DNA from: Deltaproteobacteria bacterium
Lineage (GTDB): Bacteria > Desulfobacterota > WTBG01 > JAGOGO01
Length of the DNA stretch: 64,000 nt
Direction: 5' to 3'
Assembly (NCBI GenBank): GCA_016935335.1
Contig: JAFGRE010000129.1
Span: 3,403 to 67,402, forward strand
The translations under genes were made by a program, and so were the position numbers. The notes beneath the pieces were generated by a model that was not told the origin of the DNA, did no database searches, and saw only the letters and a program-made list of their open reading frames with translations. This document shows, piece after piece, positions 26,576 through 64,000 of the stretch; position 1 is the stretch's first letter; every line of letters begins with the position of its first letter.

Positions 26576-27439
26576 TTAGCCCTTAATCCGTTCCGGGTGG
26601 GTGTAGACTACGAATTTATTGCCGCGGACGTCACCAATCACCGTAATGCCGATATCGTGAGCAAGAGTCAAGGCATGCTGCGTGGCAACGTTTCGGGAAA
26701 CAAGAATAGGGACTCTCATTTTCCCCGCTTTCAAAAGAACTTCGGAGGTAACCCTTCCGGTGGTGAGGAGGATTTTATCCTCGAGAGGAATAAGCTCCAA
26801 TACACAGGTGCCGTAGATCATATCCACCGCGTTGTGACGGCCGATATCGGATTCAAAGAGAATAACTTCTTCGAGAGTGGCCAACGCCGTGTTGTGGACT
26901 CCTCTACTTTTCTTATAAAGAACGGATTGCGCATTGATGCGAGACATCAAAAGAAAAATCTGGTCGGAAGCAACAGAAAGAGGAGATTCAATTCGATGGG
27001 TAAGCAATGAATCTATGGCGTGGTAAAAGATCGTCCCCTTTCCACATCCTGAGGTGATAATCCTTTTAAACAGGAGACTCTTCTCCATCGCCGGATCACT
27101 GGTAACGGTTACCTTAACAAGCCCTTTTTGATCGTCAACAACAATATCTTCAATATCCTCCCGTTTAGCAATTAACCCCTCAAACGCCAGGAATCCCACT
27201 GCCAGGGCCTTCAGATGAGTTCCCGTGCAAAGAAGCGTGACTATCTCCTTATTATTGAGAAAAATCGTAACCGGCATTTCCCGAACAACCGAAAGGGTTT
27301 GATCAGACCACTTTCCGCCGGATATCTTCCTTACCCTTATTTTGTTCAAAAGATCTGTAGTTGGCTCGTCCGTCGGTTTATTTATCGTCATGACTGGTCT
27401 ATTATCAGCTGTTTTGCTGTTTATTCCCACAATACGCAA
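26576..27439 (-). CDS. fdhD: Formate dehydrogenase accessory sulfurtransferase FdhD
   Basis: 287 aa; FdhD/NarQ fold with conserved SGCGKG loop. Confidence 0.85.
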   Translation of the reverse strand: MRIVGINSKTADNRPVMTINKPTDEPTTDLLNKIRVRKISGGKWSDQTLSVVREMPVTIFLNNKEIVTLLCTGTHLKALAVGFLAFEGLIAKREDIEDIVVDDQKGLVKVTVTSDPAMEKSLLFKRIITSGCGKGTIFYHAIDSLLTHRIESPLSVASDQIFLLMSRINAQSVLYKKSRGVHNTALATLEEVILFESDIGRHNAVDMIYGTCVLELIPLEDKILLTTGRVTSEVLLKAGKMRVPILVSRNVATQHALTLAHDIGITVIGDVRGNKFVVYTHPERIKG

Positions 27440-42950: not shown

Positions 42951-42962
42951 GGAGGTCCGACA

Positions 42963-44900: not shown

Positions 44901-44976
44901 TATTCTTACCAGCGAAAACAGCCAAGACGGCAGGGTAATCAGTTTCAGTGAAAAAAATTGCAGCGTAAATTCTAGC

Positions 44977-45019
44977 GTAAGGGCAATTCCTGGGAATAAG
45001 GATTTGCCCTTACCTTTTT
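44977..45019 (+). terminator. Rho-independent terminator after hydA
   Basis: Perfect 10 bp inverted repeat GTAAGGGCAA ... TTGCCCTTAC (44977-44986 / 45004-45013) followed by CTTTTTC. A TATAAT box at about 45025-45030 precedes hydG. Confidence 0.6.
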
Positions 45020-45114
45020 CAACGACTATAATAAAATAAAAGTGCGTTTCCGATCTGATATAACAATGCGTCGCGTCGTGCGTCCGAATCGAACTGTAAT
45101 GGCGAGAAACCCGA

Positions 45115-46527: not shown

Positions 46528-46614
46528 GCTGAAACCACCATCACCCTTTCCTTTACCCTGACTGATCGACACACCACCTGAAGGCGATTGCGCGTTAGAC
46601 AGGAAGGACGGATC

Positions 46615-48060: not shown

Positions 48061-49285
48061 AGGGCTGAGGCTCCATATTGGTCTTTTCGGACGGAGAAAT
48101 GTCGGAAAATCCAGTCTGCTGAACGCCGTCACCCGGCAGGATGTCTCCATTGTTTCCGATCATGCCGGTACAACGACCGACCCCGTTGAGAAACCCATGG
48201 AGCTGCTGCCCCTCGGCCCGGTACTTTTTATCGACACCGCCGGTATTGATGATGTCGGTGCATTAGGAGAAATGCGAATTGCCAAAACCCGAGGGGTAAT
48301 CGACCGAACCGATCTGGGAGTTATAATCAGTGACGCCGGGATCTGGGGCGATTTCGAAGAACAGATATGGGGAGAATTGAAAAAACGGAATATCCCCATG
48401 ATCGCTGTTTTCAACAAAACCGATCTGGAGGAGCCGGATAGCACTATCCTAACCCGGCTGGAACAGGAAAAGATCGCCATCGTAAAAACCGTAGCTGTTT
48501 CAGGCAAAGGAGTTCTGGACTTTCGCCAGGCGCTTCTCGACACGGTTCCTCCCGAATTCTTAACAAACCCCGATCTCCTGGGAGATATTGTGGGACCCGG
48601 GGAACTGGCGGTTCTGGTTGTTCCCATAGACAAGGAAGCGCCCAAGGGAAGGCTCATCGTGCCGCAGGTTCAGGCTATTCGGAACCTTCTGGACAATGAT
48701 GCGTACTGTATGGTTGTCAAAGAGCGAGAACTCAAATATGCGCTGGAGCGACTGACGGAACCTCCCACACTGGTGGTGACCGATTCACAGGCATTTTTAA
48801 AAGTGGCGGCAGATACGCCGCCGGGTATCAAGATGACCTCTTTTTCAATTCTTTTTGCCCGCATGCAAGGTGACCTGAACGAGATGGTGAGAGGCGCCTT
48901 GGCAATTGAGACGCTCAAGACAGGAGATCATGTATTAGTGGCTGAAGCCTGTTCACACCATCCAATTGCCGACGATATTGGTCGAGTCAAAATCCCTCGA
49001 TGGCTAACGCAGTATGTGGGAGGAAAAGTCCATTTTTATCAAATCCAAGGACACGATTTCCCTGAAGACCTCTCGCCGTATAAGCTCGTTATTCACTGCG
49101 GCGCCTGCATGTGGAACCGCCGAGAAATGCTGTCGCGTATTTTATATTGTCGGAATGCTAAGATTCCCATCACCAACTACGGTTTGACGATCGCTTATGC
49201 CCTTGGTATCTTCGAACGCGCACTTCAACCGTTTCCCGCAGCTTTAGAGGTGTATCATCAGACCCAAAATGATGTCCTTGCCTAA
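48038..49285 (+). CDS. hydF: [FeFe] hydrogenase H-cluster maturation GTPase HydF
   Basis: 415 aa; GTPase G1 GRRNVGKSS and G2/G3 motifs; C-terminal FeS-binding CxH ... HCxxC (CSHHP ... HCGAC). Confidence 0.85.
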   Translation: MQQQSTRKGLRLHIGLFGRRNVGKSSLLNAVTRQDVSIVSDHAGTTTDPVEKPMELLPLGPVLFIDTAGIDDVGALGEMRIAKTRGVIDRTDLGVIISDAGIWGDFEEQIWGELKKRNIPMIAVFNKTDLEEPDSTILTRLEQEKIAIVKTVAVSGKGVLDFRQALLDTVPPEFLTNPDLLGDIVGPGELAVLVVPIDKEAPKGRLIVPQVQAIRNLLDNDAYCMVVKERELKYALERLTEPPTLVVTDSQAFLKVAADTPPGIKMTSFSILFARMQGDLNEMVRGALAIETLKTGDHVLVAEACSHHPIADDIGRVKIPRWLTQYVGGKVHFYQIQGHDFPEDLSPYKLVIHCGACMWNRREMLSRILYCRNAKIPITNYGLTIAYALGIFERALQPFPAALEVYHQTQNDVLA

Positions 49286-50402
49286 TGCGCTTACCCGAGA
49301 AGAAATCATCCGCTGGCTTCATGAGAAAAATGAAGAAAAGCTCCATCAGCTTTGGCAGTGGGCTGATGAGATTAGAACAAGCGTTGTGGGTGATGAAGTT
49401 CATCTCAGAGGCCTCATCGAAATCTCGAATCACTGTTCACGTCGTTGCAGCTACTGTGGAATTAACGCGGGTAACACCTCCCTTGTCCGCTATCGAATGG
49501 AGAAGCAGGAAATCATGGACTGTGTCGACATGGCACAAAAGTTCGGGTATGGCACCGTGGTGATACAAGGCGGCGAAGATTACGGAATAAAAAAAGAGTG
49601 GATGGACGATATCATTCGTGATATTAAATCTCGAACGGACTTGGCAGTTACTCTCAGCCTTGGTGAGCGTCCCATCGACGATCTCGAGATGTGGAGGGCG
49701 GCTGGTGCCAATCGCTACCTGCTCCGCTTTGAAACCTCAGATCGAACGCTCTATGAAAAAATTCACCCTTCCATGAAATCTACAATTTTCGACAGGGTTG
49801 AGATGTTGCGCACCTTGAGAAACATCGGGTATGAAATTGGTGGCGGAATCATGGTGGGAATCCCTGGGCAAACATATGTCTCCGTCTATAATGATTTATG
49901 CACCTTTCAGGAAATGGATCTTGACATGATCGGCGTGGGGCCATATCTCCCCCATCCTCATACGCCCCTTGGAACAGAGGGGGAAGAAATCCGGAAACAA
50001 ACCCCGGACCAAATAGCCAATACCGAGCTTATGACATGTAAGGTCGTGGCCTTGACACGGATTCTCTGTCCGGAAGCCAATATCCCCAGTACTACGGCTC
50101 TCGGAACCATCGACAGACAACTCGGTCGTGTTCATGGCCTCCAAAGAGGCGCTAATGTTCTTATGCCCAATATAACCCCGTTGCACTATCGAAAGTTATA
50201 TGAGATTTATCCGGAAAAGGCTGGAAACGATAGCACTCCCGCGGAGACCGACCAACTGCTCAAGGAGTTGATTGCAGGCCTTGGCAGAAGACGGGGGAAA
50301 GGCCCCGGGGGAAGGTTGCATACTCCCCATCGATCGGAAGAAGACTCCCGGGGATTGCCCGGAATCCATAAACGTATGAGGGGGAGGACCTTGATCACCT
50401 GA
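49269..50402 (+). CDS. hydE: [FeFe] hydrogenase H-cluster radical SAM maturase HydE
   Basis: 377 aa; BioB-like; CX3CX2C (CSRRCSYC); overlaps hydF by 17 nt; unusual basic Gly/Arg-rich C-terminal tail of about 35 aa. Confidence 0.8.
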   Translation: MMSLPNALTREEIIRWLHEKNEEKLHQLWQWADEIRTSVVGDEVHLRGLIEISNHCSRRCSYCGINAGNTSLVRYRMEKQEIMDCVDMAQKFGYGTVVIQGGEDYGIKKEWMDDIIRDIKSRTDLAVTLSLGERPIDDLEMWRAAGANRYLLRFETSDRTLYEKIHPSMKSTIFDRVEMLRTLRNIGYEIGGGIMVGIPGQTYVSVYNDLCTFQEMDLDMIGVGPYLPHPHTPLGTEGEEIRKQTPDQIANTELMTCKVVALTRILCPEANIPSTTALGTIDRQLGRVHGLQRGANVLMPNITPLHYRKLYEIYPEKAGNDSTPAETDQLLKELIAGLGRRRGKGPGGRLHTPHRSEEDSRGLPGIHKRMRGRTLIT

Positions 50403-50449: not shown

Positions 50450-52321
50450 TTGAGAAAAAAGGATAGTGTTTTTATGGACCAAACTGACTCCACTCTTCTT
50501 CCGGTGGAAGAAGAACTAAGAAACCGATTATCCCGTCTCATTAAGCTGCGATGGGTAGCGCTGGAGTGCATCGTCATTGCCATTCTGTTCACCGAGTACT
50601 CCCTCCGTATTCCTCTCCCCACAAAAGAACTCTACAGCATTACTTTAGGAATCTTCTTATACAATACCTTTTTTTTCTTATTTCTTCATACTATCGAAGA
50701 AAAGGGGTCCCCGGTATTAATTCCGCGATTTGCTTTAGTCCAGATCCTTGTCGATTGGTTGGCACTTACTCTCTTCATTCATTACACTGGCGGCATAGAA
50801 AGCCCGGTTATTCTTTTCTTTTTTTTCCATGCGATTCTCTCTATTATTTTACTTCCCACCCAACTCTTTTACTTTCTCTCCACCGTGGGTATCGCTCTGA
50901 TGACGGCCTTGGCGATTTTAGAATACCAGGGAACAATCAGCCATATTACCATTTCCGCATTCGTTTCCGGTCCACGCCATCAGAATCCGATGTTTGTTGT
51001 CGGCATGCTCTTCTTTTTTGCGACCGCTCTCTATGTGTCGACCTATCTTTCAACGGCGATTATTAAAAGATTACGCCTGCGGGACAAAGATCTTATCGAT
51101 CTATTGGAAGACAAAAGACGGGCTTTTGAACGGATTCAAACTCTATACGATTTGAGTTACAAAATGTCCTCAACCTTGGATATAACGGAGATATTAGATC
51201 TGGCGGCACGAGGAACCGTCGAAGTTCTCAATGTCAAAGGCTGTTCTATCAGTGTATTGGATCCTACGCGAAAAAAATATAAGGTAAGCGGAGCCTATGG
51301 TTTGAGCGATACCTATCTCCAGAAAGGTCAACTTGACGTAACAAAGAGTCTTCCTGATGTGCTGAAGGGGAAAGTGGTGTTTGTCCCCGACGTCACTAAC
51401 GATCCCAGACTTCAGTATCCCGAAGAGACCAAGCGGGAGGGGATAGCTTCAATCCTCGGAATTCCCTTGATATTCAAGGGGGAAGTGATCGGGTCCTTGA
51501 GAATACACTCCGCCGAACCGAAGAATTATACCAAGGAAGAACTCGAGTTTATCAATGCCATTGCTAACACGATGAGCCTAGCGATCGCCAACGCCATGGC
51601 TTATAACAAATTGATAGAGTTCGACAAAGCACGATCACGCTTTATGAATATGGTGGCCCATGAGATGAGGGCTCCGGTCGGAGCCATTCAGAATATGCTG
51701 CAAGTTATTCTCAATGGGTACGTGGGGGAAATCACCCCTAAACAACAAGAACTCCTTGGTCGTGCTGAGGCTCGAACCTATTCTTTCCTGGCTATGATAA
51801 ACGATCTTCTCGATCTGGGAAGTCACGAAGCCGAACTCGAAGTCTACACCTTCAGTGATGTATGCCTCCAAGATATCCTGAGCAAGGTTCTGGATTTCCT
51901 GGAAGTACAGATAAGGAATAAGAACCTCACAGTGAAGGTCGAAAAACCTGATGGCCCTCTCGTCGTGAGCGAGGTTGGCGACGATATGGAAAAACTGTTT
52001 ACCAATCTCATCGGAAACGCCATCAAATACTCTCCGTCGAACGGAACCGTTTCGGTCGGTATATCCGTTGACAACGGGATAATAAAAATCGTGATCGCTG
52101 ATACCGGCATCGGCATTATTCTGGAAGACATCCCGCATATTTTCGATGAGTTCTTTCGAGCGAAAAACGCTCGCTTGCTTGAAAAAGAGGGGACAGGCTT
52201 AGGACTCACCATCGTAAAGCGAATCGTAGACCGCTATGACGGCAAAATCTACGTGGACAGCGAACCTGAGAAGGGAACAACCTTCACAGTAATAATCCCC
52301 CAGAATAAATCTCAGCGTTGA
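50450..52321 (+). CDS. Membrane-bound sensor histidine kinase with GAF domain
   Basis: 623 aa. N-terminal polytopic membrane region (about 6 transmembrane helices), then a GAF domain. HisKA H-box MVAHEMRAP and HATPase_c N/G boxes (GNAIKYS, DTGIGI, GTGLGL) complete the kinase. Confidence 0.85.
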   Translation: MRKKDSVFMDQTDSTLLPVEEELRNRLSRLIKLRWVALECIVIAILFTEYSLRIPLPTKELYSITLGIFLYNTFFFLFLHTIEEKGSPVLIPRFALVQILVDWLALTLFIHYTGGIESPVILFFFFHAILSIILLPTQLFYFLSTVGIALMTALAILEYQGTISHITISAFVSGPRHQNPMFVVGMLFFFATALYVSTYLSTAIIKRLRLRDKDLIDLLEDKRRAFERIQTLYDLSYKMSSTLDITEILDLAARGTVEVLNVKGCSISVLDPTRKKYKVSGAYGLSDTYLQKGQLDVTKSLPDVLKGKVVFVPDVTNDPRLQYPEETKREGIASILGIPLIFKGEVIGSLRIHSAEPKNYTKEELEFINAIANTMSLAIANAMAYNKLIEFDKARSRFMNMVAHEMRAPVGAIQNMLQVILNGYVGEITPKQQELLGRAEARTYSFLAMINDLLDLGSHEAELEVYTFSDVCLQDILSKVLDFLEVQIRNKNLTVKVEKPDGPLVVSEVGDDMEKLFTNLIGNAIKYSPSNGTVSVGISVDNGIIKIVIADTGIGIILEDIPHIFDEFFRAKNARLLEKEGTGLGLTIVKRIVDRYDGKIYVDSEPEKGTTFTVIIPQNKSQR

Positions 52322-52391: not shown

Positions 52392-52997
52392 CTATTCTGG
52401 CGAAGCTTCCGCTGTCCGGGGAACAACCGCATCTTCTCCTGAAAGAAGCTCAACCAAGCAGTCAATGCTTCTTTTCACCCGCCGGGAAAAACCCTGCACA
52501 AAACCGACCCGCTCAGGTTGAATCGCCACCACCACGGTTTTGCTTCCGCTTTGTTCCCATAAGGTGAGAAGGCTCTTGAGAGGCAGCCGATGGGTAGAAC
52601 ATAAGAGGGATTTCGGAAGGTCTTGGACGCTCAGCACGGCGATGCTGCCCGGCTCAGCCTGAAGATCAACAGCGTCCACCGCAATAATCACCTTCGGTTT
52701 GAGATCCAGAATCCGTACGAACCAGTCTTCCGGCGATTCGCCCGCATCCACAAAGATCCGTTCCCCTTCCACAGGGAACTGCCCCACCTGCTTTTGCCAT
52801 CGTTCATTCAGTTGCCCGGCGACTTCGGGTCCGACCCCGTCATCCTCACGGAGCCGGTTGCCGATGCCGAGAACGACCACCCGTCCCGGATATCCTGGAT
52901 GAACGAGAGCGGCAAGCGATTCCAAGGTCAGCAGAGCGTCTTCCTTCCTGGTCATATTGGTCCAAATTTGGGAATTATACCTGACTCGAGCGAACAA
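52392..52997 (-). CDS. [NiFe] hydrogenase maturation endopeptidase (HycI/HyaD family)
   Basis: VVVLGIGNRLREDDGVGPEVA and IIAVDAVD motifs of the HycI/HybD protease family. The true start is probably the internal ATG at about 52955. Confidence 0.75.
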   Translation of the reverse strand: MFARVRYNSQIWTNMTRKEDALLTLESLAALVHPGYPGRVVVLGIGNRLREDDGVGPEVAGQLNERWQKQVGQFPVEGERIFVDAGESPEDWFVRILDLKPKVIIAVDAVDLQAEPGSIAVLSVQDLPKSLLCSTHRLPLKSLLTLWEQSGSKTVVVAIQPERVGFVQGFSRRVKRSIDCLVELLSGEDAVVPRTAEASPE

Positions 52998-53924
52998 CTA
53001 CCGGGGTACGCCCGACTCATGAGAAGCATCGAAAGGCGCAGAAAAAAGTCCGTATGACACCAGGAGGTCTTCAAATTCACGATAGTCATCCGCTGAGGCA
53101 GGAGCAAAGCCGGAAATTCTCAAACGTTCAAGGATAAAACGATGCGAAGCGTTCCCAAGGTCGAGTTGAAGTAAAGCGGTTTTCACGTTTCTCACCAGAT
53201 CCGAATCAGCATCCGGGAAGCTGACAAAGCACGGATTGGGATAATACTGCGTGATCGCAAGCACCGTAACGTTTGGCACCGCTCCCTTTGCTTTCGTAAG
53301 GGCCTGGAGAACGTCTTCTCGGACGAAGCCGACCTCCGCTTGACCCAACGCTATTTTCTCAAAGATCTCCTCTTGGGTATCTCCGAATATGAATTTCACA
53401 TCCCGTTCCGGTTCCAGACCGCATTCCTTAAGATGCATCCATTGAGCAAGAAATCCGCACACATTTGAACGAGAGGAAGCAAGAACCGACTTCCCTCGCA
53501 GGTCGTTAATTGATCCTATCGGACTTTTAGGATGGATGATGATCAAACCCCGGTATTCGGTTCGGCCATCAAGCGAGACTGCTTTAACCAGGGGGACCGC
53601 TCCGTACTGCATTTTGAGAATAAGGTAATAATACGGGTTCACCAGGGAAAGAGCAAACCGTTCCGTTTCCACAAGAGAAGTCAATGATTCCATTTCAGGC
53701 GGAGCACAGACCATATCCATTTCCCAGCTGGTTTCTTTCGTCAAATAATCCATCAGAAAAATAAACCGCGCCTCCATCATGAGGAAGGAAAACGGCCCCG
53801 GATGCACAAGGATTTTTGCTTTTCCGCGAACGGGTGAGATTGGCTCACAGCCGACTGACCCGAAAATCACCGCGGCAATGAGAATGCATAGAAGCAACTG
53901 GCAGGCAAATAAACACCTTCTCAT
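52998..53924 (-). CDS. Periplasmic substrate-binding lipoprotein (PhnD/SsuA-like PBP fold) encoded inside the hydrogenase operon
   Basis: 308 aa; signal peptide with lipobox (VIFGSVGC); PBP type 2-like pattern. Start overlaps the NuoB-like stop by 4 nt and the stop abuts the hycI start. Confidence 0.5.
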   Translation of the reverse strand: MRRCLFACQLLLCILIAAVIFGSVGCEPISPVRGKAKILVHPGPFSFLMMEARFIFLMDYLTKETSWEMDMVCAPPEMESLTSLVETERFALSLVNPYYYLILKMQYGAVPLVKAVSLDGRTEYRGLIIIHPKSPIGSINDLRGKSVLASSRSNVCGFLAQWMHLKECGLEPERDVKFIFGDTQEEIFEKIALGQAEVGFVREDVLQALTKAKGAVPNVTVLAITQYYPNPCFVSFPDADSDLVRNVKTALLQLDLGNASHRFILERLRISGFAPASADDYREFEDLLVSYGLFSAPFDASHESGVPR

Positions 53925-54430
53925 TTATATTCCCTTTGGGCTTGCTCGAATTTTTTCAGTATTTCTTCAGGATGGCTTTGGGTCATGGTTATGGGAGCAA
54001 CCTTTTTGGAAGCAAGACCCAACGCCACCGCAACGCCATAAAGAATTGCCTCCGGCCGGGGTGGGCAACCTGGGATGAAATAATCTACCGGAAGCACTGT
54101 ATCCAACCCACCCAGCGTGGCGTAACTGTCAAAAAATACGTTACCCCCGGTCGGGCAACTGCCGATTGCAAACACCAGCTTTGGATTGGGGACAGCTTCG
54201 TAAACCCGCCGAAGGGCCGGGGCTATCTGCCGGGTCACCGGTCCGGAGACCAAGAGCACGTCGGCATGGCGGGGAGAGCCAACCAACTTGATTCCGAATC
54301 GCTCAGCGTCATAATAAGGCGTAAGAACATTGATGACCTCAATGTCACAGCCGTTACAGGCGCCCGCATTGACATGGTATACCCACAGAGATTTAGGAAA
54401 TGCCTTTGCACACAGTTTCTTGAGCATCAT
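53921..54430 (-). CDS. Group 4 [NiFe] hydrogenase small subunit (NuoB/HycG/HyfI-like)
   Basis: 169 aa; proximal 4Fe-4S ligands CNGCD, GSCPTGG, PGCPP. Confidence 0.85.
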   Translation of the reverse strand: MMLKKLCAKAFPKSLWVYHVNAGACNGCDIEVINVLTPYYDAERFGIKLVGSPRHADVLLVSGPVTRQIAPALRRVYEAVPNPKLVFAIGSCPTGGNVFFDSYATLGGLDTVLPVDYFIPGCPPRPEAILYGVAVALGLASKKVAPITMTQSHPEEILKKFEQAQREYK

Positions 54431-54436
54431 TCCTCC

Positions 54437-55927
54437 CTACGGCATCGCTACCATAGAAAAAATCGCTTTGGTAGCTTCGTATAACAAGGGATACAATATT
54501 TGTGGAAACACGCCGATGACAACACACAATAACGACAGAATCACCATCCCTCCCCACATTGCCGGCGGCACCTCCGTTATCTTTTTTTTGCTTAGGTTCT
54601 GAGGCAACGCGCCCATAAAAACGTTATACGAGGCATGAATAAAGGCTGCCAAGGTCAGTATGGCAACGAGGACGGCAATCACCGTCGCCCAGGCATGGCC
54701 GGCTTTTACCCCGGCCAAGAACAGCGTAAATTCACTCATGAACCCGTTAAACAAGGGGATACCGCCCAAAGCCAACGCTGCCACAAAAAACGTCAATCCG
54801 GTAAGAGGCATTACCTTCCCCAACCCTCCCAGTTCGGAGATGCGACGACTCCCAGTTGCATAAATGACACCGCCGAAGCTAAAAAAGGCCAAGGCCTTCA
54901 TCAAGGAATGGTTGACAAGGTGAAAGAGGGCCCCGTAAATTCCCAGGTAGTTCCCGAGGCCAAGACCCATGATAATAAAACCGATGCTCACGACCGAACA
55001 GAATGCCAGAAGCCTTTTCATATCTTCCTGAAAAAACATCATCAGCACACCCACAATCATAGTAATAACACCTAAGATAAGAACGAGAGGGCTGATGACG
55101 GGATAAAAGGGATACAGTATCAAAACGGTGCGGATTATGGCATAGACCCCTACCTTGATCATCACGCCCGAGAGAAGAGCGCTTACAGGAGTAGGGGCTT
55201 CGGCATGAGCATCCGGCAGCCAGGTGTGGAAAGGAACAATCCCCGCCTTGGTTCCAAAGCCGGCCAGCAAAAGAACAACCGATAACAGAGCAATGCTCTT
55301 GGGAATTTTACCGGCCACCTTGGCAATCTCGGTGATCTTGAGAGGATCAAGGCCGCTGGGGATATGCGGCGAGGAGCCAGCATACAGGAGGACGCACCCA
55401 AAAAGTGCAAACGTAATTCCCACCGTGAGCAGCATTGCATATTTATATCCCGCTTCCAACGCATCCCGGTTCCAGTAGAAGGCAACCAGGATTACCGAAG
55501 CCAGGGTGGTCGCCTCAATAATCACCCACAGCAAGATAATATTGTTGGTAGTAGAGGCCCAGAGCATGGAAGCCAAAAACAGCATGATCCAGCCGTAGTA
55601 GGAATGAAACCGTTCGCGAGGGATAACACCTCGTTCCGTCTCTTTCCGTATGTAGGGCAGAGAATAAACGACCGCGATCACTCCGAGAAAGGCGACCATT
55701 CCGGCAATCAATCCTCCCAAGGCATCCACTCGGAATTCCTCGCGAAAGAGAGACAAAATTTCCCCTTGGGTCGTCTGAATCAGGATCTTGCAGGAGACGA
55801 CAAATGTCAGAGCGGATCCGATGACAGCGCTTCGTTCAGCAAAAAGCCGGGATCGTTTTCCGACGAGGAAAATCAAGACCCCGGTGAGAGCTGGTATTAA
55901 AAAAAGGTACAGTATCTCAAGATTCAT
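54437..55927 (-). CDS. Membrane antiporter-like subunit (NuoN/NuoM / HyfF-HyfD family)
   Basis: 496 aa, about 14 transmembrane helices; complex I ND2/4/5 family pattern. Confidence 0.8.
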   Translation of the reverse strand: MNLEILYLFLIPALTGVLIFLVGKRSRLFAERSAVIGSALTFVVSCKILIQTTQGEILSLFREEFRVDALGGLIAGMVAFLGVIAVVYSLPYIRKETERGVIPRERFHSYYGWIMLFLASMLWASTTNNIILLWVIIEATTLASVILVAFYWNRDALEAGYKYAMLLTVGITFALFGCVLLYAGSSPHIPSGLDPLKITEIAKVAGKIPKSIALLSVVLLLAGFGTKAGIVPFHTWLPDAHAEAPTPVSALLSGVMIKVGVYAIIRTVLILYPFYPVISPLVLILGVITMIVGVLMMFFQEDMKRLLAFCSVVSIGFIIMGLGLGNYLGIYGALFHLVNHSLMKALAFFSFGGVIYATGSRRISELGGLGKVMPLTGLTFFVAALALGGIPLFNGFMSEFTLFLAGVKAGHAWATVIAVLVAILTLAAFIHASYNVFMGALPQNLSKKKITEVPPAMWGGMVILSLLCVVIGVFPQILYPLLYEATKAIFSMVAMP

Positions 55928-55951
55928 TTTGAGAACTCCTTAGTGTCACCA

Positions 55952-56617
55952 TCACCACCGTAAGCCCTTAAGCTGAAAGGTGTCGGTGGAGCCGAATTTT
56001 TGGTATACGCCAAAAATCACGTAAAGAAGAAGGTAGACCGCAATCACTACATCAGTAACAATGCCGATGATAGCCGTCTCCTTTAAGAGTGGAGACAAGC
56101 TGACGAGCGAGAGATGAACACCGTTTTCCAGTATAAGAAGGCCGTGAACGGTTTTAATGGCATCCCGCCTCACGAGGATGCAGTAAAGACCCATGACAAA
56201 GATGGTGAGACTCACGGCCAAGTTTGTTCGAAACGGTTCTTCGCTGGCGGCGGGGGTGGGAGCAATGAACTCCCCATACTGATGCGTCAGTCGGTAGAAT
56301 ATAATGACAATGACACTGATCAACAAAATCGACCCCAGGTATCCAATCAGGGGAGGGAACTCTCGATTCGTCGTCCGACGGATGTACCGCAAGAGAAGGT
56401 AAGGAATTACAACTACCTTGGTAATAAAGGCGGTAATCGCCCAGTAGTAGAGACCGGGATTTTGGTTCGCAAAGGCCACGAAAAGACTGCACATCAAGAC
56501 GGCCTGAAGCATGTAAGCATAAGCGGAATAGCGGAGGTTCCTGAGTTCAATAACCAAATATGAAGTAATGATAAGGGAAAGGCTTATTGTGGGAATATAC
56601 ATTGTCAATTGTTCCAT
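55952..56617 (-). CDS. Hydrogenase-4 component E-like membrane subunit (HyfE family)
   Basis: 221 aa polytopic membrane protein in the conserved position of Hyf-type operons. Confidence 0.6.
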   Translation of the reverse strand: MEQLTMYIPTISLSLIITSYLVIELRNLRYSAYAYMLQAVLMCSLFVAFANQNPGLYYWAITAFITKVVVIPYLLLRYIRRTTNREFPPLIGYLGSILLISVIVIIFYRLTHQYGEFIAPTPAASEEPFRTNLAVSLTIFVMGLYCILVRRDAIKTVHGLLILENGVHLSLVSLSPLLKETAIIGIVTDVVIAVYLLLYVIFGVYQKFGSTDTFQLKGLRW

Positions 56618-56671
56618 ACCACTGTGCCCTTCTTTGTTGGAGCATCGAACAGCTTATGAGGTCAAGCCATT

Positions 56672-57121
56672 CTATTTCCCTTCGCTTTGATTTCTGAATC
56701 CGGTCACCATCATCTTATCCAAGGGGCTTGCGGGCTTAAAACAACGACCGCAGCGACCGCACGGACCCATATAGAGTTCGGTCCGAATGTAGAGATCATC
56801 ATTGAGATTGGTGGCAAGTTGGTATTCGCGCGTCATGGCAATCGCATCCTCGGGACACACCTCGGCACATCGACCACAATAAGTGCAGCGTTTAAGGAAA
56901 TACTCAATAATTCGCTGAGGACCATCGTCAGTAATTTCAATCAAGCGGGCCGGGCAGACATTGGCACAGCCGCCACAGCCGATGCACTTCTCCACATCAA
57001 CCGCTATCTTACCCCGATACCAATCGCCGGGGGGATGCGGCTCCGGACCCAAGGGAAAAGCGGCCGTGACTCTCCCTGCCTTCAGACAAATCAATGCTTC
57101 CTTCAGTTTGCTCATAAACAT
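56672..57121 (-). CDS. 2x[4Fe-4S] ferredoxin subunit (NuoI/HycF/HyfH-like)
   Basis: 149 aa; two CxxCxxCxxxCP motifs (CIGCGGCANVCP, CTYCGRCAEVCP). Confidence 0.85.
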   Translation of the reverse strand: MFMSKLKEALICLKAGRVTAAFPLGPEPHPPGDWYRGKIAVDVEKCIGCGGCANVCPARLIEITDDGPQRIIEYFLKRCTYCGRCAEVCPEDAIAMTREYQLATNLNDDLYIRTELYMGPCGRCGRCFKPASPLDKMMVTGFRNQSEGK

Positions 57122-57138
57122 GATGGTTCACCCTTTCT

Positions 57139-58044
57139 TTAAACCCCGATCAGGGCAAAGGCGATTGCGAAAACAAGCACAACCCAGATCCCGATAAAGT
57201 ACCGAACCGCTTGGTCAATACGTATTCGAGGATTAACAGCATCAATCACACCGACCAATGCAATCACCACTAAAACCTTGACAAGATTAATGAGGATGTC
57301 AACAGGGATGACGCCGGTTTTGGGCCAGGGAATAAATACTTCGAGAAAAAGTGACGCCAAGATGATCTGCTTGGCAAAGTAGCTCCATTTGTATAAAGCC
57401 AACGAAGGCCCCCCCGCCTCTATGAAAGGCCCTCCCATGATTTCCTGATCGGCGTCGGGTATGTCAAAGGGAAGTTTGCCAAGCTGAACCTGGAGAACCA
57501 AGAAGAAGGGGATTGCGGCAATCACCATGGAAAGAACGGGACCGCTTTCTCGATACCAGGAAGAGATATGCATGAGGTCAAAAGAGTGGCTGTGAATAAC
57601 AGCGACGATAAGGCTGCCGACGACAATAATCTCCACAACCATGGCGAGCATCATTTCTCGTGCCGTTCCTAAAGCGCCGTAAGGATTCCCGGTGGAGGTG
57701 CCGCCCAGCATGATCCCTACCGAGGCCAGCGCAAGGAAATAGACAAGGACGATCAGATCGCCGGCAAAGCCCAGGGGGGGGCTTGCTCCCATAGGGGTAA
57801 GGAGAGCGGCAACCAAGACGCTTCCGAAGGTGAGAACCGGCGCGAAAGAGAAAAGGGGATTACCTCCTACCTCAAGCCGCTCCTTGCCGAGCAGCTTGAG
57901 GAGGTCAAGATAAGGTTGCCGAAGCGGGGGCCCCTTGCGGGAATGTACGACTGCTTTAAGTTTTCGAATTACTCCTTCATAGAACGGCGCGACAATAATC
58001 ACGAGAAGGAGATTGACTATTGCGAGGGAAATAGTGGTCGTCAT
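57139..58044 (-). CDS. Membrane subunit NuoH/HycD/HyfC-like
   Basis: 301 aa; complex I subunit 1 family; 8 transmembrane helices; 4 nt overlap with the large subunit. Confidence 0.85.
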   Translation of the reverse strand: MTTTISLAIVNLLLVIIVAPFYEGVIRKLKAVVHSRKGPPLRQPYLDLLKLLGKERLEVGGNPLFSFAPVLTFGSVLVAALLTPMGASPPLGFAGDLIVLVYFLALASVGIMLGGTSTGNPYGALGTAREMMLAMVVEIIVVGSLIVAVIHSHSFDLMHISSWYRESGPVLSMVIAAIPFFLVLQVQLGKLPFDIPDADQEIMGGPFIEAGGPSLALYKWSYFAKQIILASLFLEVFIPWPKTGVIPVDILINLVKVLVVIALVGVIDAVNPRIRIDQAVRYFIGIWVVLVFAIAFALIGV

Positions 58045-59732
58045 TTTCTGTTTATCGTTTTCTCCCGGCTCAGTTCCGTTAATTCTTCATTGGTATAAAT
58101 CCGGATTGCGCCTCTTTTCCGATCCACCACCTCCAGCCGTTCGGTACAGGAGAAGCAGGGATCGTAACTCGCTATCGATATGGGCACGTCAGCCAGTTCC
58201 TGCCCCATGATCATGGCCGGCACCGAAGCCAGATTCATGTAACTGGGCGCTCGGACCTTCCATCGATAGGGGCGGTTGTTTTCTCCCGTAAGAACATAGT
58301 GGACCGATTCTCCCCGAGGGGCCTCTACAACCCGTACGCCCTCCTTTCCCGGGGGAATCTCTTCGGGGATGTTTGCCATAATCGATCCGTCGGGGAGTTC
58401 TTGAACCCCCTGACGGACTAGACGAATCGATTCCAGTGTCTCCTCCAGGCGAACAAGAGTCCGGGCCAGGTTATCGCACCCCTTCTGGACTTTCTTTTCC
58501 GGAACCAGATAATCATACGCACAGTAAGGATGATCAACCCGCGAATCAATCGCCACGCCGGAACCTCGGGCGGTCGGCCCGGTGACACAATAGTCCACAG
58601 CATCAGCATGGGAGAGCACTCCGACGCCCTCAAGGCGCATCATGAGGGGAGTATCTCCTTGAATTGCGTCGATGACCTTGAGCCACTCTTTTTCAATCCG
58701 ATCAACCACCTCCAGGATCTTTGGTTTCTGCGCAGCAGTAATATCCCGGCGCACACCGCCGATCAAGTTCATGCCGTAAGTTTTCCGATTCCCGGTAATT
58801 TCCTCACAAAGCCACATAACCGGCTCTCGAATGCGCCAGGTCTGCATCAACACGGTATCGAATCCCAGGACATGACCGCCTATTCCCAACCAAAGGAGAT
58901 GAGAGTGAATCCGCTCCAGTTCGAGCAGAACGCTTCGAATATATCTCGCTCGGATGGGAACCTCAATTTCAGCAGCTTCTTCTATGGCCTCACAGTAACA
59001 CGTACTGTGTATATATCCTCATATGCCTCATATGCGCTCGGCCAGAAATGAGGTTTGATTGTAGGTGAGGGCTGAATCCCCTATTTTTTCAATACCCCGA
59101 TGGCTGTAGAAGCCACGATAATCACAACCGACGACGGTCTCCCCTTCTACAAATACACGAAAGACCGCCGGTTCCTCCAGGACCGGGAAGAACGGCCCAA
59201 TGGGAATCACCGTGGCGTTCTCCGGCGGGGCAAGCGGTTTCGGCGCAAGCCCTTCCACGGGCTCAGGACGACGGTCATAGGAGAAATCCTTCCGCAAAGG
59301 ATAGACATTGTCCGGCCAATCATCCGGAAGAATCAAACGGCGCGGATCAATGTGACCATTAAAGGTGATACCAACCAGATCCCGAACTTCCCGCTCGATC
59401 CAATTAGCTCCGGGGATTATCGGGGTCAGGGAGTCAATCTCGGGAGTATCCTTATCCAACGATGCTTGAAGCAACAGAAAAATCCTCTCCGCATCGAAGG
59501 AAAAGATATACGTCGTCTGAAAGTCCCGATGCGTAGGCCGTCGATCAACCCCGACGATGGTATTAAATCGAGCCCCCATCCCCCGGAACAGATATTCCGC
59601 CAATGTTCGAATGCGTTCGCGACGGATGTCCGCATAAATAGTCCGGGGCACCGGCTCCCGGGCGGAGATAATATCCGTCGGGAACTTGGCCTTCAGATCA
59701 TCGATCAAACTCCTGCCGATCTCAAAAACCAT
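58041..59732 (-). CDS. Fused NuoC/NuoD-like [NiFe] hydrogenase large subunit (HycE/HyfG-like) with two in-frame TGA codons, putative selenocysteines, at both Cys positions of the N-terminal RxCGxC Ni-binding motif
   Basis: ORF-track ORFs 59028..59732 and 58041..58889 are in the same frame; only two TGA codons lie between them. Minus-strand codons 59030-59028 and 59021-59019 read AERI-TGA-GI-TGA-GYIHSTCYCEAIEEAAEIEVP, which aligns with the HycE-type AERICGICGxxHSTAYC motif. C-terminal Ni ligands DPCFSC are intact. NuoC-like domain sits at the N-terminus. AAGGAGAG ribosome-binding site before the ATG at 59732. Confidence 0.6.
58991..59009 (-). other. Candidate bacterial SECIS-like hairpin downstream of the two UGA codons
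   Basis: mRNA CACAGUA-CGUGU-UACUGUG: 7 bp perfect stem, 5 nt loop containing GU. It begins 9 nt after the second UGA and 18 nt after the first, a spacing compatible with SelB-dependent decoding. Confidence 0.4.
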
Positions 59733-59818
59733 TGTGTACTCTCCTTTTTTTTAGGGGCCTCTCTAAGTACCAAGCCATTGGTTACCTTTTACTCCTTCCA
59801 TGGGTGTTGAACATTTGT

Positions 59819-61870
59819 TTACATGAGCGTTAACCAGACAATAACCGCCACTACCAGGATAAACCCGATCACCTGAAAAAGCATATACACTTGAGGAATT
59901 CCTACATGAGTTCTCCGGAACATCTCGGAAAACCGAAGCATGGCAGTAACGAGGGGATAAAATAGTACCTTGTCAAAGTCTATTCCCCTGTAAATCCGCT
60001 CCGGTTTCTTCAGATGAATCGGGGGGGCCTCCCAGGAAACCAAGCGTTCGAAATGAGACGCCAACGGGAGGTAGAAGCTTTGAGCGCGGTATCGCACTTC
60101 GTCGGTATCGTACACCTCCCCGCAATTCCATATCGGAACCGACCGACTTTCCGGTGATCCCACCCGGGAGATGATAACCGCAACCATGAGACACCCACCA
60201 AAGACCAGGAGCCCCATAAGCGGAAACCAGACACCCGCTTGGACTCCTCCCATCATGGGAATCAAGCCAATTTCCGACATGCCGAAGACGGATGAAAGGT
60301 GGGGAAGGGAATTTCCGTAAAGTGAACCGGTAAGGCCGGCGTGAATCATCTGTAAAGGGATCCACGGAAAGAGACCAAGGAGCACGCAAAGAAGTGCAAA
60401 TATATTCTGAGGAATCCGCATGGTGTATGGAACATCAAGACCGGGCCGTAAGCTGGTTTCCAATTCGCTGCCCATCTCCCCCCCAAAGCATGTGCCGAAA
60501 AACTTGATGAAGTATGCAATCGTTACAGTACTGATAAAAATTGCCACTACCCCGAAAAGAATAAACACCGGAACGCTGATTCCTCCAATTATGGTTGTTT
60601 GATAGATCAGCCACTTGCTCACAAACCCGTTAAACGGCGGCATTCCCGCGATTGACAACGCAGCTATGAGCGTAACCCAGGCAGTCAGCGGCATAACGGA
60701 ATAAAGGCCGCTCAGTCGGTTCAAATCTCGAGTACCCGTCTTATAAAGAATCGCCCCGGCATTTAGAAAAAGGAGCCCTTTAAAAACAGCATGGTTCACC
60801 AGGTGATACATGCCGGCCATGGTAGCCACCACCGAAAGGAGCGGGTTGATTTCATAAAATGCCAATCCGGTACCGATACCCAAAAGGATGTATCCCATCT
60901 GGCCGATTGACGAAAACGCCAGCAAGCGCTTGAAGTCATGCTGCAAAAGGGCGGAAACAGTGCCCATAAACAAGGATACTGCCCCACATGCAGCGATCAC
61001 AATGCCCCACGCAAACGTGTGCGTTGAAACCGGCAAGAGGAAGAAGAAAAACCGGACGAATCCATAGACACCCATCTTGATCATAACTCCGGAGAGCATT
61101 GCCGAAACTCCCGAAGGCGCGGCCGGATGAGCATCTGGAAGCCATCCTCCCACCGGATACATACCGGCCTTGGTGCCGAAGCCGAGGACGAACAGTCCCA
61201 GGACAAATGAGAGTTGAACCGGATGGGCCTCGACCATTCCCGAGAGAGCCTCCCGCAAAGCGGCAAAGGCAAAGGAACCAACCCGTGTTTGGAGAAGGAT
61301 CGCTCCGATGAACATGGCGGCCGTTCCCACATGGGTCATGATGAAGTACTTGAGGCCGGCCCTGAGGACGACCTGATCCTCTTTTTCATAAATTACCAGG
61401 AAGTAAGACGTAAGAGTCATAAACTCCCAGAAAACAAAAAAGAAGAACATGTCGGAAACCGAAACCACCCCAACCATCCCGGCGATGAACAGTATAAGGC
61501 AATGATAGAACCGGGCGATGCCCTGTGACGGATAGAGGTCCATATATCGAAAGGAGTAGAGCGTGCCCGCAAAGGAGACCAAACCAATAATAACCAAAAA
61601 AAGGGCGCTGAGATAATCCACCGATACCGTCAACTCCGCTCCCAGAGACGGGATCACCATAAGCGGCTTCGAAAGATTGCGGGGGCCTCCCGTAAAGACC
61701 CGATAGGCAACACAGAAAAGGATCCCTGACATAATGGTAACCGTACCAACCCCAATGGTACCGCACAGTCGCCGGGAGCGCCTGGTCAGCGCCGTAAGAA
61801 TCAACCCAAGGATAATCGTGGCAGCAAAAAGGGTTATCATAAACACCGTCGTTCCCCCTTTAAAAATCAA
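59819..61870 (-). CDS. Large antiporter-like membrane subunit (NuoL/MrpA/HyfB family)
   Basis: 683 aa, about 16-18 transmembrane helices; ND5/NuoL-type pattern. Confidence 0.8.
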   Translation of the reverse strand: MIFKGGTTVFMITLFAATIILGLILTALTRRSRRLCGTIGVGTVTIMSGILFCVAYRVFTGGPRNLSKPLMVIPSLGAELTVSVDYLSALFLVIIGLVSFAGTLYSFRYMDLYPSQGIARFYHCLILFIAGMVGVVSVSDMFFFFVFWEFMTLTSYFLVIYEKEDQVVLRAGLKYFIMTHVGTAAMFIGAILLQTRVGSFAFAALREALSGMVEAHPVQLSFVLGLFVLGFGTKAGMYPVGGWLPDAHPAAPSGVSAMLSGVMIKMGVYGFVRFFFFLLPVSTHTFAWGIVIAACGAVSLFMGTVSALLQHDFKRLLAFSSIGQMGYILLGIGTGLAFYEINPLLSVVATMAGMYHLVNHAVFKGLLFLNAGAILYKTGTRDLNRLSGLYSVMPLTAWVTLIAALSIAGMPPFNGFVSKWLIYQTTIIGGISVPVFILFGVVAIFISTVTIAYFIKFFGTCFGGEMGSELETSLRPGLDVPYTMRIPQNIFALLCVLLGLFPWIPLQMIHAGLTGSLYGNSLPHLSSVFGMSEIGLIPMMGGVQAGVWFPLMGLLVFGGCLMVAVIISRVGSPESRSVPIWNCGEVYDTDEVRYRAQSFYLPLASHFERLVSWEAPPIHLKKPERIYRGIDFDKVLFYPLVTAMLRFSEMFRRTHVGIPQVYMLFQVIGFILVVAVIVWLTLM

Positions 61871-61912
61871 AACAAACTTCGCACCTCATCGTCCGCTTCC
61901 CTCCTGGCTTTT

Positions 61913-63427
61913 TTACCTGACCCCTTCCAAGAAAGGGATCCCCAATAAAGGAGCTGCCAAGGTCAGGATCACCAAAGCCCCCAGTACCAGCTTGATAGCA
62001 AAGGGAAATGCAAACGTTTCACCGGCTTCACGCGGTTCACCGAAAAAGACCCGCTGGGTCACAACAATAAACCAAATGAAAGCGCCGACGGATTCTCCCA
62101 AAACCAGGATGCCCAAAATAACCCCGAAGGTTGACCGAAGCTCAAAGGCTCCCACCACAATGAAAAACTTGCTCCAGAAACACGAGAAGGGCGGGATGCC
62201 GGTTACCGATAAAACGCCGGTTATAAACGCTCCTGCCAAAAGCGGAGAGCTTCCGGCAAGGCCGGATAATCGGGAGATGAGGCGTGTGCCGGCGGCATAG
62301 GAGATCGCGCCGACCGACAAAAAGAGAAGCGTCTTGGCGAACGCGTGACAGAGCAGATGCAGCAAACCGCCCCGGAGCCCTACCAGTGACCCGGCCGCCC
62401 CGAGGCCCAATCCCAAGAAGATATACCCCACGTTGGAGATGGTGGAGTAGGCCAAAAGCCGCTTCAAGTCATCTTGCACGAAGTAAAAAACAAGCCCCAT
62501 AAACATTGTTATAATGGCAACAGTGGCGGTCAGGAGTCCGATTCCGCTCCCCACTTCAAAACCTGCCGTAAATACCCGGGCGATCAGAAAAGCCCCGGCC
62601 TTCACCATTGCCGCCGCGTGAAGATATGCTGAAATGGGAGTGGGCGCCACCATGGCGTCAGGTATCCAGGTATAAAAGGGTCCCTGCGCTGACTTAGCCC
62701 AGCCCGCCAGAAGCAGGCAGATCAGAACCATGACTTTTATGGTACCCGGGAGTCTGCCGATACTGGCAAACTCGAAACTGCTGGTATACACAAAAATAAA
62801 CGCCAGCCCAACGATAAAAAAGAGGCCCGGAATGTGGGTCATCAGAAGCGCCTTAAAACCGGAACGAAACGATGTTTCATCTTCATAAAAGGCAATGAGG
62901 GCGGCAGAACAAATGGTGGTGAGTTCCCAGAAAATCAAAAACTGGAGGAGATTGGGCGAAAGCGCGAGTCCGATCATCGAAAAGATGAAGAACAGCAGCC
63001 ATGCATAGTATCGAACGAATCCCGATGTCACCGGATGTTCACGGTTTTTGCTGCTCAGGTACCCATTGGAAAAGAAAACCACCAGAAAACCGATAACCAC
63101 GGTGACGACCAACATCAACACGGAGAGGGGATCGAGGACCGCTCCGAAGAGCTTCGACTCGGTCCTGATCCACGGCATCCGGCCGAAGAGGAAGAACGCG
63201 GGAGGTTTTCCCAGGCTTTGTACAATAACTCCTCCTGCAGCCACCAGCGTGGCGAGCGCCGATAACGATGCCAGCCGGCTTGCCCGTTCACCCTGAAAGC
63301 ACGAGGGAAATCCTGTCAGGAGAAGAAGAACGCCTGCCAGCGGAAGAAGAAACACCAACGCAAGCCAAACTGTCATACTGTTGCTCCCGTTCCGTGTTGC
63401 CGATTCCCAATGCGGACAGACCGTCAC
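61913..63427 (-). CDS. Second antiporter-like membrane subunit (NuoL/NuoM / HyfB-HyfD family)
   Basis: 504 aa polytopic membrane protein. The true start is probably the ATG at about 63377 (MTVWLALVFLL). Confidence 0.75.
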   Translation of the reverse strand: MTVCPHWESATRNGSNSMTVWLALVFLLPLAGVLLLLTGFPSCFQGERASRLASLSALATLVAAGGVIVQSLGKPPAFFLFGRMPWIRTESKLFGAVLDPLSVLMLVVTVVIGFLVVFFSNGYLSSKNREHPVTSGFVRYYAWLLFFIFSMIGLALSPNLLQFLIFWELTTICSAALIAFYEDETSFRSGFKALLMTHIPGLFFIVGLAFIFVYTSSFEFASIGRLPGTIKVMVLICLLLAGWAKSAQGPFYTWIPDAMVAPTPISAYLHAAAMVKAGAFLIARVFTAGFEVGSGIGLLTATVAIITMFMGLVFYFVQDDLKRLLAYSTISNVGYIFLGLGLGAAGSLVGLRGGLLHLLCHAFAKTLLFLSVGAISYAAGTRLISRLSGLAGSSPLLAGAFITGVLSVTGIPPFSCFWSKFFIVVGAFELRSTFGVILGILVLGESVGAFIWFIVVTQRVFFGEPREAGETFAFPFAIKLVLGALVILTLAAPLLGIPFLEGVR

Positions 63428-63448
63428 GATGCTGCCGTTACTGCGAGG

Positions 63449-64000
63449 TCAGACCACCCGCTCCGGCAACTTCATCATTTCCCGATAGGAAAAAACCGGT
63501 CCGTCCAGACATACATACTTGTGCCCGATAGCACAGTGCCCGCACTTTCCGACACCGCACTTCATGTATCGCTCCAAGGTGGAGATAATGTTCGCGGGGG
63601 CGAAGCCGAGACGCAGCAGTTCCATGATGGCAAACCGTATCATGATGGGCGGCCCGCAAACAAAGGCTACGGTGTTGTCGACAATGATGTCAGCTTTCGG
63701 GAAAATGGTCGTCACCACCCCCACATTCCCGGACCAACCTGAATCACCCACGTCAACCGTCATCATGAACCGAACGTCCTGCATCGTTTCCCATTCTTTG
63801 AGACGGTTTTTATACACGAGATCGGCCGGACTCCGGGCACCATAAAGAATCTGAACGTCTCCGAATTCCGACCGGGCATCGAGCATCGGTTCAATCAGCG
63901 AGCGGAGGGGAGGAAGGCCGATGCCCCCGGCCACGAAAAGAACGTTCTTCCCCTTGATCTCGTCAAAGGGAAAACCGTTTCCGAAGGGACCGCGCACACC
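63449..64000 (-). CDS. FAD/NAD(P)-binding oxidoreductase subunit with C-terminal 2Fe-2S cluster (PyrK / sulfide dehydrogenase SudB / hydrogenase gamma-subunit-like). The 5' end lies outside the window.
   Basis: C-terminal 182 aa visible; NAD-binding GGIGLPP motif; 2Fe-2S Cys cluster CGVGKCGHC...C typical of the PyrK family. Only 21 nt separate it from the next gene. Confidence 0.75.
   Translation of the reverse strand, partial: GVRGPFGNGFPFDEIKGKNVLFVAGGIGLPPLRSLIEPMLDARSEFGDVQILYGARSPADLVYKNRLKEWETMQDVRFMMTVDVGDSGWSGNVGVVTTIFPKADIIVDNTVAFVCGPPIMIRFAIMELLRLGFAPANIISTLERYMKCGVGKCGHCAIGHKYVCLDGPVFSYREMMKLPERVV

Follow-up and report, generated by a model that had tools for sequence, protein, structure and literature searches.

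The question raised by this locus is whether one short RNA hairpin could direct the decoding of two stop codons that lie only 9 nt apart in the same reading frame. The DNA is a 64-kb (64,000-nucleotide) stretch from a Deltaproteobacteria bacterium of the phylum Desulfobacterota (contig JAFGRE010000129.1, positions 3,403 to 67,402), the whole of which is referred to here as the window, with all positions counted within it. Its minus strand carries a gene for a HycE-like hydrogenase large subunit that is interrupted by two in-frame UGA codons, and these are followed by a hairpin that a first-pass annotation, made from the letters alone, had described as being positioned like a bacterial selenocysteine insertion sequence (SECIS). 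That description is supported by the fold, by conservation in orthologues, by compensatory changes in the stem and by agreement with the published consensus for both UGAs. On this comparative evidence the hairpin is very probably the SECIS of the large-subunit mRNA of a Group 4b [NiFeSe] hydrogenase of the UXXU type, U standing for selenocysteine (Sec). The elements concerned are the following.

58041 to 59732, minus strand: gene for the HycE-like, NuoC-NuoD-fused large (catalytic) subunit of a membrane-bound Group 4 [NiFe] hydrogenase, 563 codons long, of which codons 235 and 238 are in-frame UGAs.
59028 to 59030, minus strand: UGA1, at the site of the first Ni-ligating cysteine (Cys) of the N-terminal RxCGxC motif.
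59019 to 59021, minus strand: UGA2, at the site of the second (bridging) Cys of the N-terminal motif; TGA in UXXU- and CXXU-type relatives.
59010 to 59018, minus strand: A/U-rich spacer GGAUAUAUA, the 9-nt interval from UGA2 to the hairpin.
58991 to 59009, minus strand: putative SECIS hairpin, encoding His-Ser-Thr-Cys-Tyr-Cys; assigned from its fold, its conservation and the synonymous-site minimum on its six codons.
59003 to 59009, minus strand: 5' arm of the hairpin, CACAGUA.
58998 to 59002, minus strand: apical loop CGUGU, with a conserved G at 59001, then U.
58991 to 58997, minus strand: 3' arm of the hairpin, UACUGUG.
58146 to 58163, minus strand: C-terminal Ni-binding motif DPCFSC, with ordinary Cys codons; the Sec site in classical [NiFeSe] hydrogenases.

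Apart from codons 235 and 238, the large-subunit frame is uninterrupted in translation from 59732 down to the C-terminal DPCFSC, with the N-terminal motif at amino acids 232-239 and the C-terminal one at 524-529; a fragment of this protein is deposited in GenBank as MBN2467872.1. Pfam recognises Complex1_30kDa (PF00329, NuoC-like), NiFeSe_Hases (PF00374) and Complex1_49kDa (PF00346, NuoD-like) domains in it. The best solved relative is subunit 5 of the Escherichia coli formate hydrogenlyase, HycE (7Z0S/7Z0T, E 2.5e-123), in which both UGA positions align with cysteines of the RVCGICG motif, and the same two positions are TGC or TGT in 43 distinct Cys-type homologues. TGA is the ordinary stop of 17 of the 51 open reading frames (ORFs) of the window, hence the genetic code is standard and not reassigned. 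TGA at codons 235 and 238, Cys in DPCFSC and a large subunit fused from NuoC and NuoD are the make-up of a Group 4 UXXU enzyme.

Read on the minus strand, the mRNA around the two codons runs GAG CGC AUA UGA GGC AUA UGA GGA UAU AUA CAC AGU ACG UGU UAC UGU GAG GCC. Both a direct reading and a scan for perfect hairpins (start 58991) bear out the 7-bp stem without mismatches and the 5-nt loop that had been claimed for this strand, and the two spacings given, 9 nt from UGA2 and 18 nt from UGA1 to the hairpin start, are also right. On the plus strand the element appears as the string cacagtaacacgtactgtg. When the region is folded, the hairpin dominates over alternative structures: it is contained in both the minimum-free-energy and the centroid structures in every context folded, with pair probabilities of 0.6-0.96 (contexts of 86-301 nt) and a free energy of -6.5 kcal/mol as a bare 19-mer, -7.6 kcal/mol from UGA2 to +37 and -10.3 kcal/mol from UGA1 to +46. 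Perfect 7-bp hairpins with 3-8 nt loops number 39 in the window, that is, about 1 per 1.6 kb, against about 26 in Markov simulations, and the chance of finding one so placed behind a given codon is roughly 1-2%. The first-pass annotation had cautioned that a single sequence leaves room for a chance occurrence, and with 39 such hairpins and weak fold z-scores (given below) this caution is justified; taken from the single sequence the hairpin is suggestive, and it is with the comparative evidence that it stands out as far more than chance. Rfam gave zero matches at the gathering threshold over the whole window, and zero at E<=10 over 58900-59100.

Two further pairings seen around the hairpin were set aside. 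A lower stem, GGC/GCC, that appears in the fold of the window sequence was rejected, the 3' partner codon being GCC in only 7 of 29 sequences. A mini-hairpin, CAUAUG-AGG-CAUAUG, which spans both UGAs and arises from the repeated AUAUGAGG unit, is weakened to 4 A-U pairs in most relatives and was not counted. As a separate observation, the UGAs lie within a 9-nt tandem unit at 59016-59033 (minus strand), AUAUGAGGC AUAUGAGGA, which encodes Ile-Sec-Gly twice.

The relatives used for comparison were gathered in several ways. With the N-terminal fragment as query, a protein search yielded over 100 clusters, 231-237 residues long and ending in ...LAERI or ...LAERICGI, which are gene calls stopped at one or the other UGA. 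In species-representative genomes a scan identified 52 loci; L019 alone among them is TGA at both positions, and the remainder, all Cys-type, formed the control set. Metagenomes were scanned at the DNA level with the pattern ER[IV]-TGA-G-[IV]-TGA-G; about three quarters of the matches are due to chance, and after filtering for hydrogenase context (GIEK...ER.U.G.U.G..H) and the removal of L081 as a false positive, at least about 30 true UXXU loci were left. Exact proteins led to 11 more loci, 7 of the CXXU and 4 of the UXXU type, the latter being all four of the U-first proteins, taken regardless of their second position. The comparison sets thus comprise 33 distinct Sec-type (UXXU and CXXU) and 43 distinct Cys-type sequences, and synonymous codons were studied in 29 distinct metagenomic UXXU sequences among the matches listed. 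Both TGAs are present, in intact frames and from many samples, in at least 29 distinct metagenomic UXXU sequences, and since these and the more than 100 protein clusters share the split, sequencing error or a pseudogene is ruled out. The UXXU type is also far commoner in metagenomes than the 47 published sequences would indicate.

The question of chance or function is decided by comparing genes with and without the UGAs. The hairpin is kept in 33/33 distinct Sec-type relatives, and 92.6% of their stem cells are paired (n=33), compared with 37.5% in the Cys-type genes (n=43). At least 6 of the 7 pairs are formed in 31/33 Sec-type vs 1/43 Cys-type sequences, and a G at loop position 1 or 2, in a common register, is found in 32/33 vs 4/43; L082 and L177 have their G at loop position 2 within their own re-registered hairpins. 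The contrast persists when the encoded peptide is the same. All 27 Sec-type genes encoding HSTCYC do so with CAC AGT ACG TG(T/C) TAC TGT, whereas 23 of the 24 Cys-type genes for this peptide use other codons (e.g. CAT TCC ACC TGC TAT TGC) with which the stem is lost, and none of the 24 keeps the loop G. One Cys-type locus, L001, from a metagenome-assembled genome of Armatimonadota (motif near 1905), forms 6 of the 7 stem pairs (CAC AGC ACC TGT TAC TGT) and has lost the loop G (CCUGU); judged by its sequence this hairpin resembles a SECIS relic or forerunner of the kind that PMC13582414 discusses.

The same picture is obtained from synonymous variation within the 29 UXXU sequences. In the flanks, codon entropy is about 0.9 bit for two-fold and about 1.5-2 bits for four-fold families. 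Within the hairpin His is CAC in 29/29, Thr is ACG in 27/27, Tyr is TAC in 26/26 and Cys is TGT in 27/29 sequences, and the codons that vary freely are that of the loop Cys and that of the spacer Gly (+4). Among 75 sliding windows of 6 codons, the most constrained is exactly that of the hairpin codons, +7 to +12, with 86% identical codons vs a median of 45%. Constraint on the spacer is intermediate (62% identical codons vs 43% in the flanks) and reaches 5' over the spacer and both UGAs; the spacer Tyr is TAT in 19/19, and its Ile is ATA or ATC, never ATT. The free variation at flanking synonymous sites indicates that enough time has passed for drift in the hairpin codons. The synonymous sites of the hairpin are under purifying selection, and the hairpin is strictly associated with UGA-bearing alleles. 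Just 3' of the hairpin (58970-58984, minus strand), the Glu codons at +16 and +17 after UGA1 are mostly GAA (27/29, then 15/15 where the residue is Glu), a small patch of additional synonymous conservation that shows no obvious pairing partner.

Compensatory and re-registered stems are also found in separate lineages. Overall 92.4% of cells are paired in the true register, against 10-55% when the partners are slid, and in three lineages the stem has been rebuilt with different bases. In L065, L068 and L075 the sixth pair has changed from U-A to C-G, at the cost of replacing Tyr by Cys; L082 and L103 have a shifted 5-bp hairpin, GCAGU-AGUU-ACUGC; and L177, of the CXXU type, has a wholly different 7-bp stem, ACUCCAC-CGGGUAU-GUGGAGU. 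In L173 and L174 an extra C-G pair closes the loop. Loop position 2 is a G in each of these cases.

Concerning the identity of the element, the bacterial SECIS consensus (the Zhang and Gladyshev model, restated in Fig. 2 of PMC13188914) calls for 3-9 nt in the apical loop and 4-16 bp in the upper stem that carries it, for one or more G at loop positions 1 and 2, as a rule with G or U next, for a distance from UGA to loop of 16-37 nt, and for a free energy of -7.5 kcal/mol or lower (PMC13188914). The hairpin here has a 5-nt loop with G at position 2 followed by U, a 7-bp stem, and UGA-to-loop distances of 16 nt for UGA2 (9-nt spacer and 7-nt arm) and 25 nt for UGA1, both of which fall within 16-37 nt. 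It lies directly 3' of in-frame UGAs that align with Cys in homologues, and its structure is kept in the orthologues bearing UGA and relaxed in the others.

Several points weigh against this reading and should be set beside it. At 16 nt, the distance for UGA2 lies right at the lower limit of the consensus range, and -7.6 kcal/mol barely passes the -7.5 threshold. The single-sequence fold z-scores run from +0.46 to -2.15 and are not significant. Column-wise covariation is thin, with double changes at only 2 pairs, owing to the near-invariance of the stem. Since the Sec-type sequences share ancestry, contrasts of the Fisher type overstate their independence and the contingency p-values are not true probabilities. 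The minimal SECIS of E. coli works at a fixed spacing of 11 nt (reviewed in PMC8659212), and by this standard the optimum cannot lie at 9 nt and at 18 nt alike; compared with E. coli fdhF, the hairpin here has neither the bulged U nor a conserved lower stem. Within the window, Pfam scans of 54 ORFs found zero selA, selB, selC or selD genes, a tRNA scan found zero tRNA or tmRNA genes, and a scan for other UGA-interrupted genes gave only gene junctions and antisense frames. Finally, the published study of such enzymes, by Takano et al. (PMC13582414), is in silico only; in it selABCD were found in about 90% of Sec-type genomes.

That a single element would have to serve two UGAs 9 nt apart had been pointed out in the first-pass annotation as unusual in itself, and such service is supported indirectly from three sides. 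In CXXU relatives the same hairpin is found at the corresponding site, hence it suffices for UGA2. There is only one block of constraint: between -90 and +150 nt no second block of synonymous constraint is seen in the 29 UXXU sequences, and there is no room for a hairpin between UGA1 and UGA2. Moreover, the same proposal has been made by Takano et al. (2026). As the UGA-to-loop distances of 25 and 16 nt both lie within the consensus range, the same hairpin could serve both codons.

By analogy with the E. coli and Moorella systems, SelB-GTP carrying Sec-tRNA(Sec) would bind the G-U of the apical loop (loop positions 2-3). With UGA1 in the ribosomal A site, the base of the hairpin would lie 18 nt downstream and SelB would deliver its Sec-tRNA; three codons later UGA2 would occupy the A site, with the base 9 nt downstream, and a second SelB complex would act likewise. 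One hairpin would in this way tether SelB for two successive recoding events, and the product would have selenocysteine at both N-terminal Ni ligands while the C-terminal DPCxxC remains cysteine. For E. coli, PMC4513850 gives a recoding efficiency of 30-40%, and if this value applied here the full-length yield would, by extrapolation, be of the order of 10-15%.

Local context may contribute. The Ile codon before each UGA (59031-59033 and 59022-59024, minus strand) is AUA or AUC, never AUU, across loci L060-L184. In UXXU genes AUA precedes UGA1 in 23/27 and UGA2 in 19/27; in CXXU genes it precedes the UGA in 6/7 and the Cys codon in 1/7, and in Cys-type genes it precedes the second Cys in 1/43. 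From these codon counts, the preference for AUA or AUC may be a local signal for recoding as against termination. More tentatively, and with less confidence than we would need to prefer it, we propose that a single minimal hairpin, with neither lower stem nor bulge, recodes both UGAs, or else that the two are decoded differently, one as Sec and the other as Cys via tRNA-ReC.

The alternatives differ in how much of the above they leave standing. A chance palindrome in a conserved coding stretch, with TGAs due to a pseudogene or an assembly error, would agree with the density of perfect hairpins and with fold z-scores short of significance. It is refuted by the recurrence of TGAs and hairpin together in intact frames of at least 29 distinct metagenomic UXXU sequences, by a codon choice that differs systematically from that of Cys-type genes for the same peptide, and by the stems rebuilt in separate lineages, and its probability is practically negligible. 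Another possibility is that the hairpin serves UGA2 only, and UGA1 is passed by near-cognate read-through with tRNA-Trp or tRNA-Cys or depends on an unrecognised second signal. The identity of the hairpin in CXXU genes, which indicates that it evolved for, or suffices for, UGA2, and the E. coli-like spacing of UGA2 would be in line with this, as would the spacing of UGA1, which at 18 nt departs widely from the 11 nt of the minimal E. coli SECIS; the 5' extension of constraint across the spacer and both UGAs, together with the AUA preference, could also be an extra context signal. However, UGA1, at 25 nt from the loop, is well within the 16-37 nt range, other blocks of synonymous constraint number zero between -90 and +150 nt, the enzyme would be inactive with Trp or a random residue as a Ni ligand, and UXXU motifs are predicted in other bacterial selenoprotein families (PMC13188914). 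We therefore regard this alternative as improbable.

Somewhat more credible, although still unlikely, is that the hairpin is a SelB-dependent signal and that one or both UGAs are translated as Cys by a SelB-compatible tRNA-ReC (a selC*-type tRNA-Cys), so that the finished enzyme would in part or entirely be a normal [NiFe] hydrogenase, or one of mixed Se/S. Genes resembling tRNA-ReC occur in about 56% of UXXU genomes vs about 2% of other Sec-type genomes, and the authors of that survey allow that either UGA may be read as Cys (PMC13582414); with zero tRNA genes in it, nothing in the window opposes such decoding. On the other hand, only 2 of the 6 Desulfobacterota UXXU genomes have tRNA-ReC (PMC13582414), CXXU-type genes with the same SECIS are common in genomes that do not have it, and keeping two costly UGAs and a constrained SECIS just for the insertion of Cys would bring no evident gain over TGC. 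This alternative concerns the residue inserted, and the identity of the hairpin as a SECIS would be unchanged by it.

Taking the hairpin as a SECIS, the locus can be placed among known systems. The enzyme class and the single-SECIS idea are already known: Takano, Inoue, Aono, Ochi and Mihara (Front Microbiol, 3 September 2026; PMC13582414) described 47 Group 4 [NiFeSe] hydrogenases with Sec in the N-terminal motif only, of types CXXU, UXXC and UXXU. Their Group 4b UXXU members come from Desulfobacterota among other phyla and from clusters with SHI-gamma/beta homologues, in the SECIS of Group 4b the loop G is invariant and falls at the third position of an ACG codon for Thr, and a single downstream SECIS was suggested for both UGAs (PMC13582414). 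The present locus shows no difference in kind from these. It shares with them the NuoCD-fused large subunit, a formate-hydrogenlyase-like or Mrp-like cluster with an SHI-gamma-like gene upstream, the loop G as third base of Thr ACG, the phylum Desulfobacterota and the single-SECIS proposal. The assignment to subgroup 4b rests on the composition of the cluster and on that loop G, and is accordingly a predicted one. What is added here is the codon contrast for the same peptide, the profile of synonymous constraint, the rebuilt stems, the AUA/AUC context before UGA and the abundance in metagenomes.

With the SECIS of E. coli fdhF the hairpin shares its location in the coding region just 3' of UGA and, by analogy, an apical-loop G-U as the putative SelB contact; the 16 nt from UGA2 to the loop is close to the fdhF arrangement, a minimal 17-nt stem-loop 11 nt after UGA (PMC8659212). 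It differs from fdhF in the 5-nt CGUGU loop, the perfect 7-bp stem and the presence of two UGAs, at spacings of 9 and 18 nt. Like the classical [NiFeSe] hydrogenases of Groups 1 and 3 (Desulfomicrobium baculatum, Methanococcus voltae Vhu/Fru), the enzyme is predicted to have UGA-encoded Sec in place of a Ni-ligating Cys. In those, however, Sec is the first residue of the C-terminal UxxC, whereas the present enzyme has DPCFSC as its C-terminal motif and UGA codons for both N-terminal ligands, a contrast also stated in PMC13582414. Other predicted UxxU selenoproteins are a thiol:disulfide oxidoreductase of the Prx-like kind, a putative mercuric-reductase-like metal-binding protein and an FmdB-family protein (PMC13188914); they likewise have two UGAs 9 nt apart in a motif derived from CxxC, and belong to unrelated families.

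The large subunit is encoded within an operon identified by Pfam scans.

52392 to 63997, minus strand: hydrogenase operon.

Its order is a SHI-gamma-like NAD-binding/Fe-S gene (partial), two antiporter-like subunits, the large subunit, a HyfC-like subunit, a 2x[4Fe-4S] ferredoxin, a HyfE-like subunit, a third antiporter-like subunit, the small subunit, a PhnD-like protein and the HycI protease, and this gene order is matched in L181. Small subunit, HyfC- and HyfE-like subunits, antiporter-like subunits, ferredoxin and HycI are thus all present, as in an energy-converting cluster. The gene at the operon head (63449-63997, minus strand) runs off the window edge and is partial; it has an NAD-binding and a DHODB-type (PyrK/SHI-gamma-like) Fe-S domain, which suggests coupling of the complex to NAD(P)H, as in the 4b cluster variant of PMC13582414. 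The PhnD-like periplasmic substrate-binding gene (PF12974; 52998-53924, minus strand), between the small-subunit gene and hycI, is an odd member of such an operon; it overlaps the small-subunit gene by 4 nt, and its place is kept in L181.

Elsewhere in the window a second, unrelated hydrogenase system is found on the plus strand at 41247-50402, comprising a NuoF-like flavoprotein, a multidomain [FeFe] hydrogenase, HydG, an aspartase/fumarase-like lyase, HydF and a HydE-like radical SAM protein, and a GAF-domain histidine kinase (50450-52321) lies between the two hydrogenase clusters. At 25308-27439 (minus strand) FdhD, a protein of sulfur transfer for formate dehydrogenase maturation, adjoins a class-V aminotransferase of the cysteine desulfurase or selenocysteine-lyase type; the presence of FdhD implies that a formate dehydrogenase is encoded elsewhere in the genome.

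[NiFeSe] hydrogenases are valued for their high rates of H2 production and their oxygen tolerance, and to our knowledge selenium was known before 2026 only at the C-terminal Ni ligand, in Group 1 and Group 3 enzymes. If the present reading is true, a membrane-bound, energy-converting Group 4 enzyme with Sec as both N-terminal Ni ligands would have a chemically different active site, and if the two UGAs are decoded differently the result would be a Ni site with a programmed mixed Se/S ligand set. Recoding by a single hairpin, if true, would mean that SelB works at spacings spread over 9 nt and is reloaded in the space of two elongation cycles, with a yield that might be aided by context, namely AUA or AUC before the UGA, G after it and an A/U-rich spacer. 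Two UGAs with one short hairpin would then constitute a natural test of how strictly decoding by SelB depends on the distance between UGA and SECIS.

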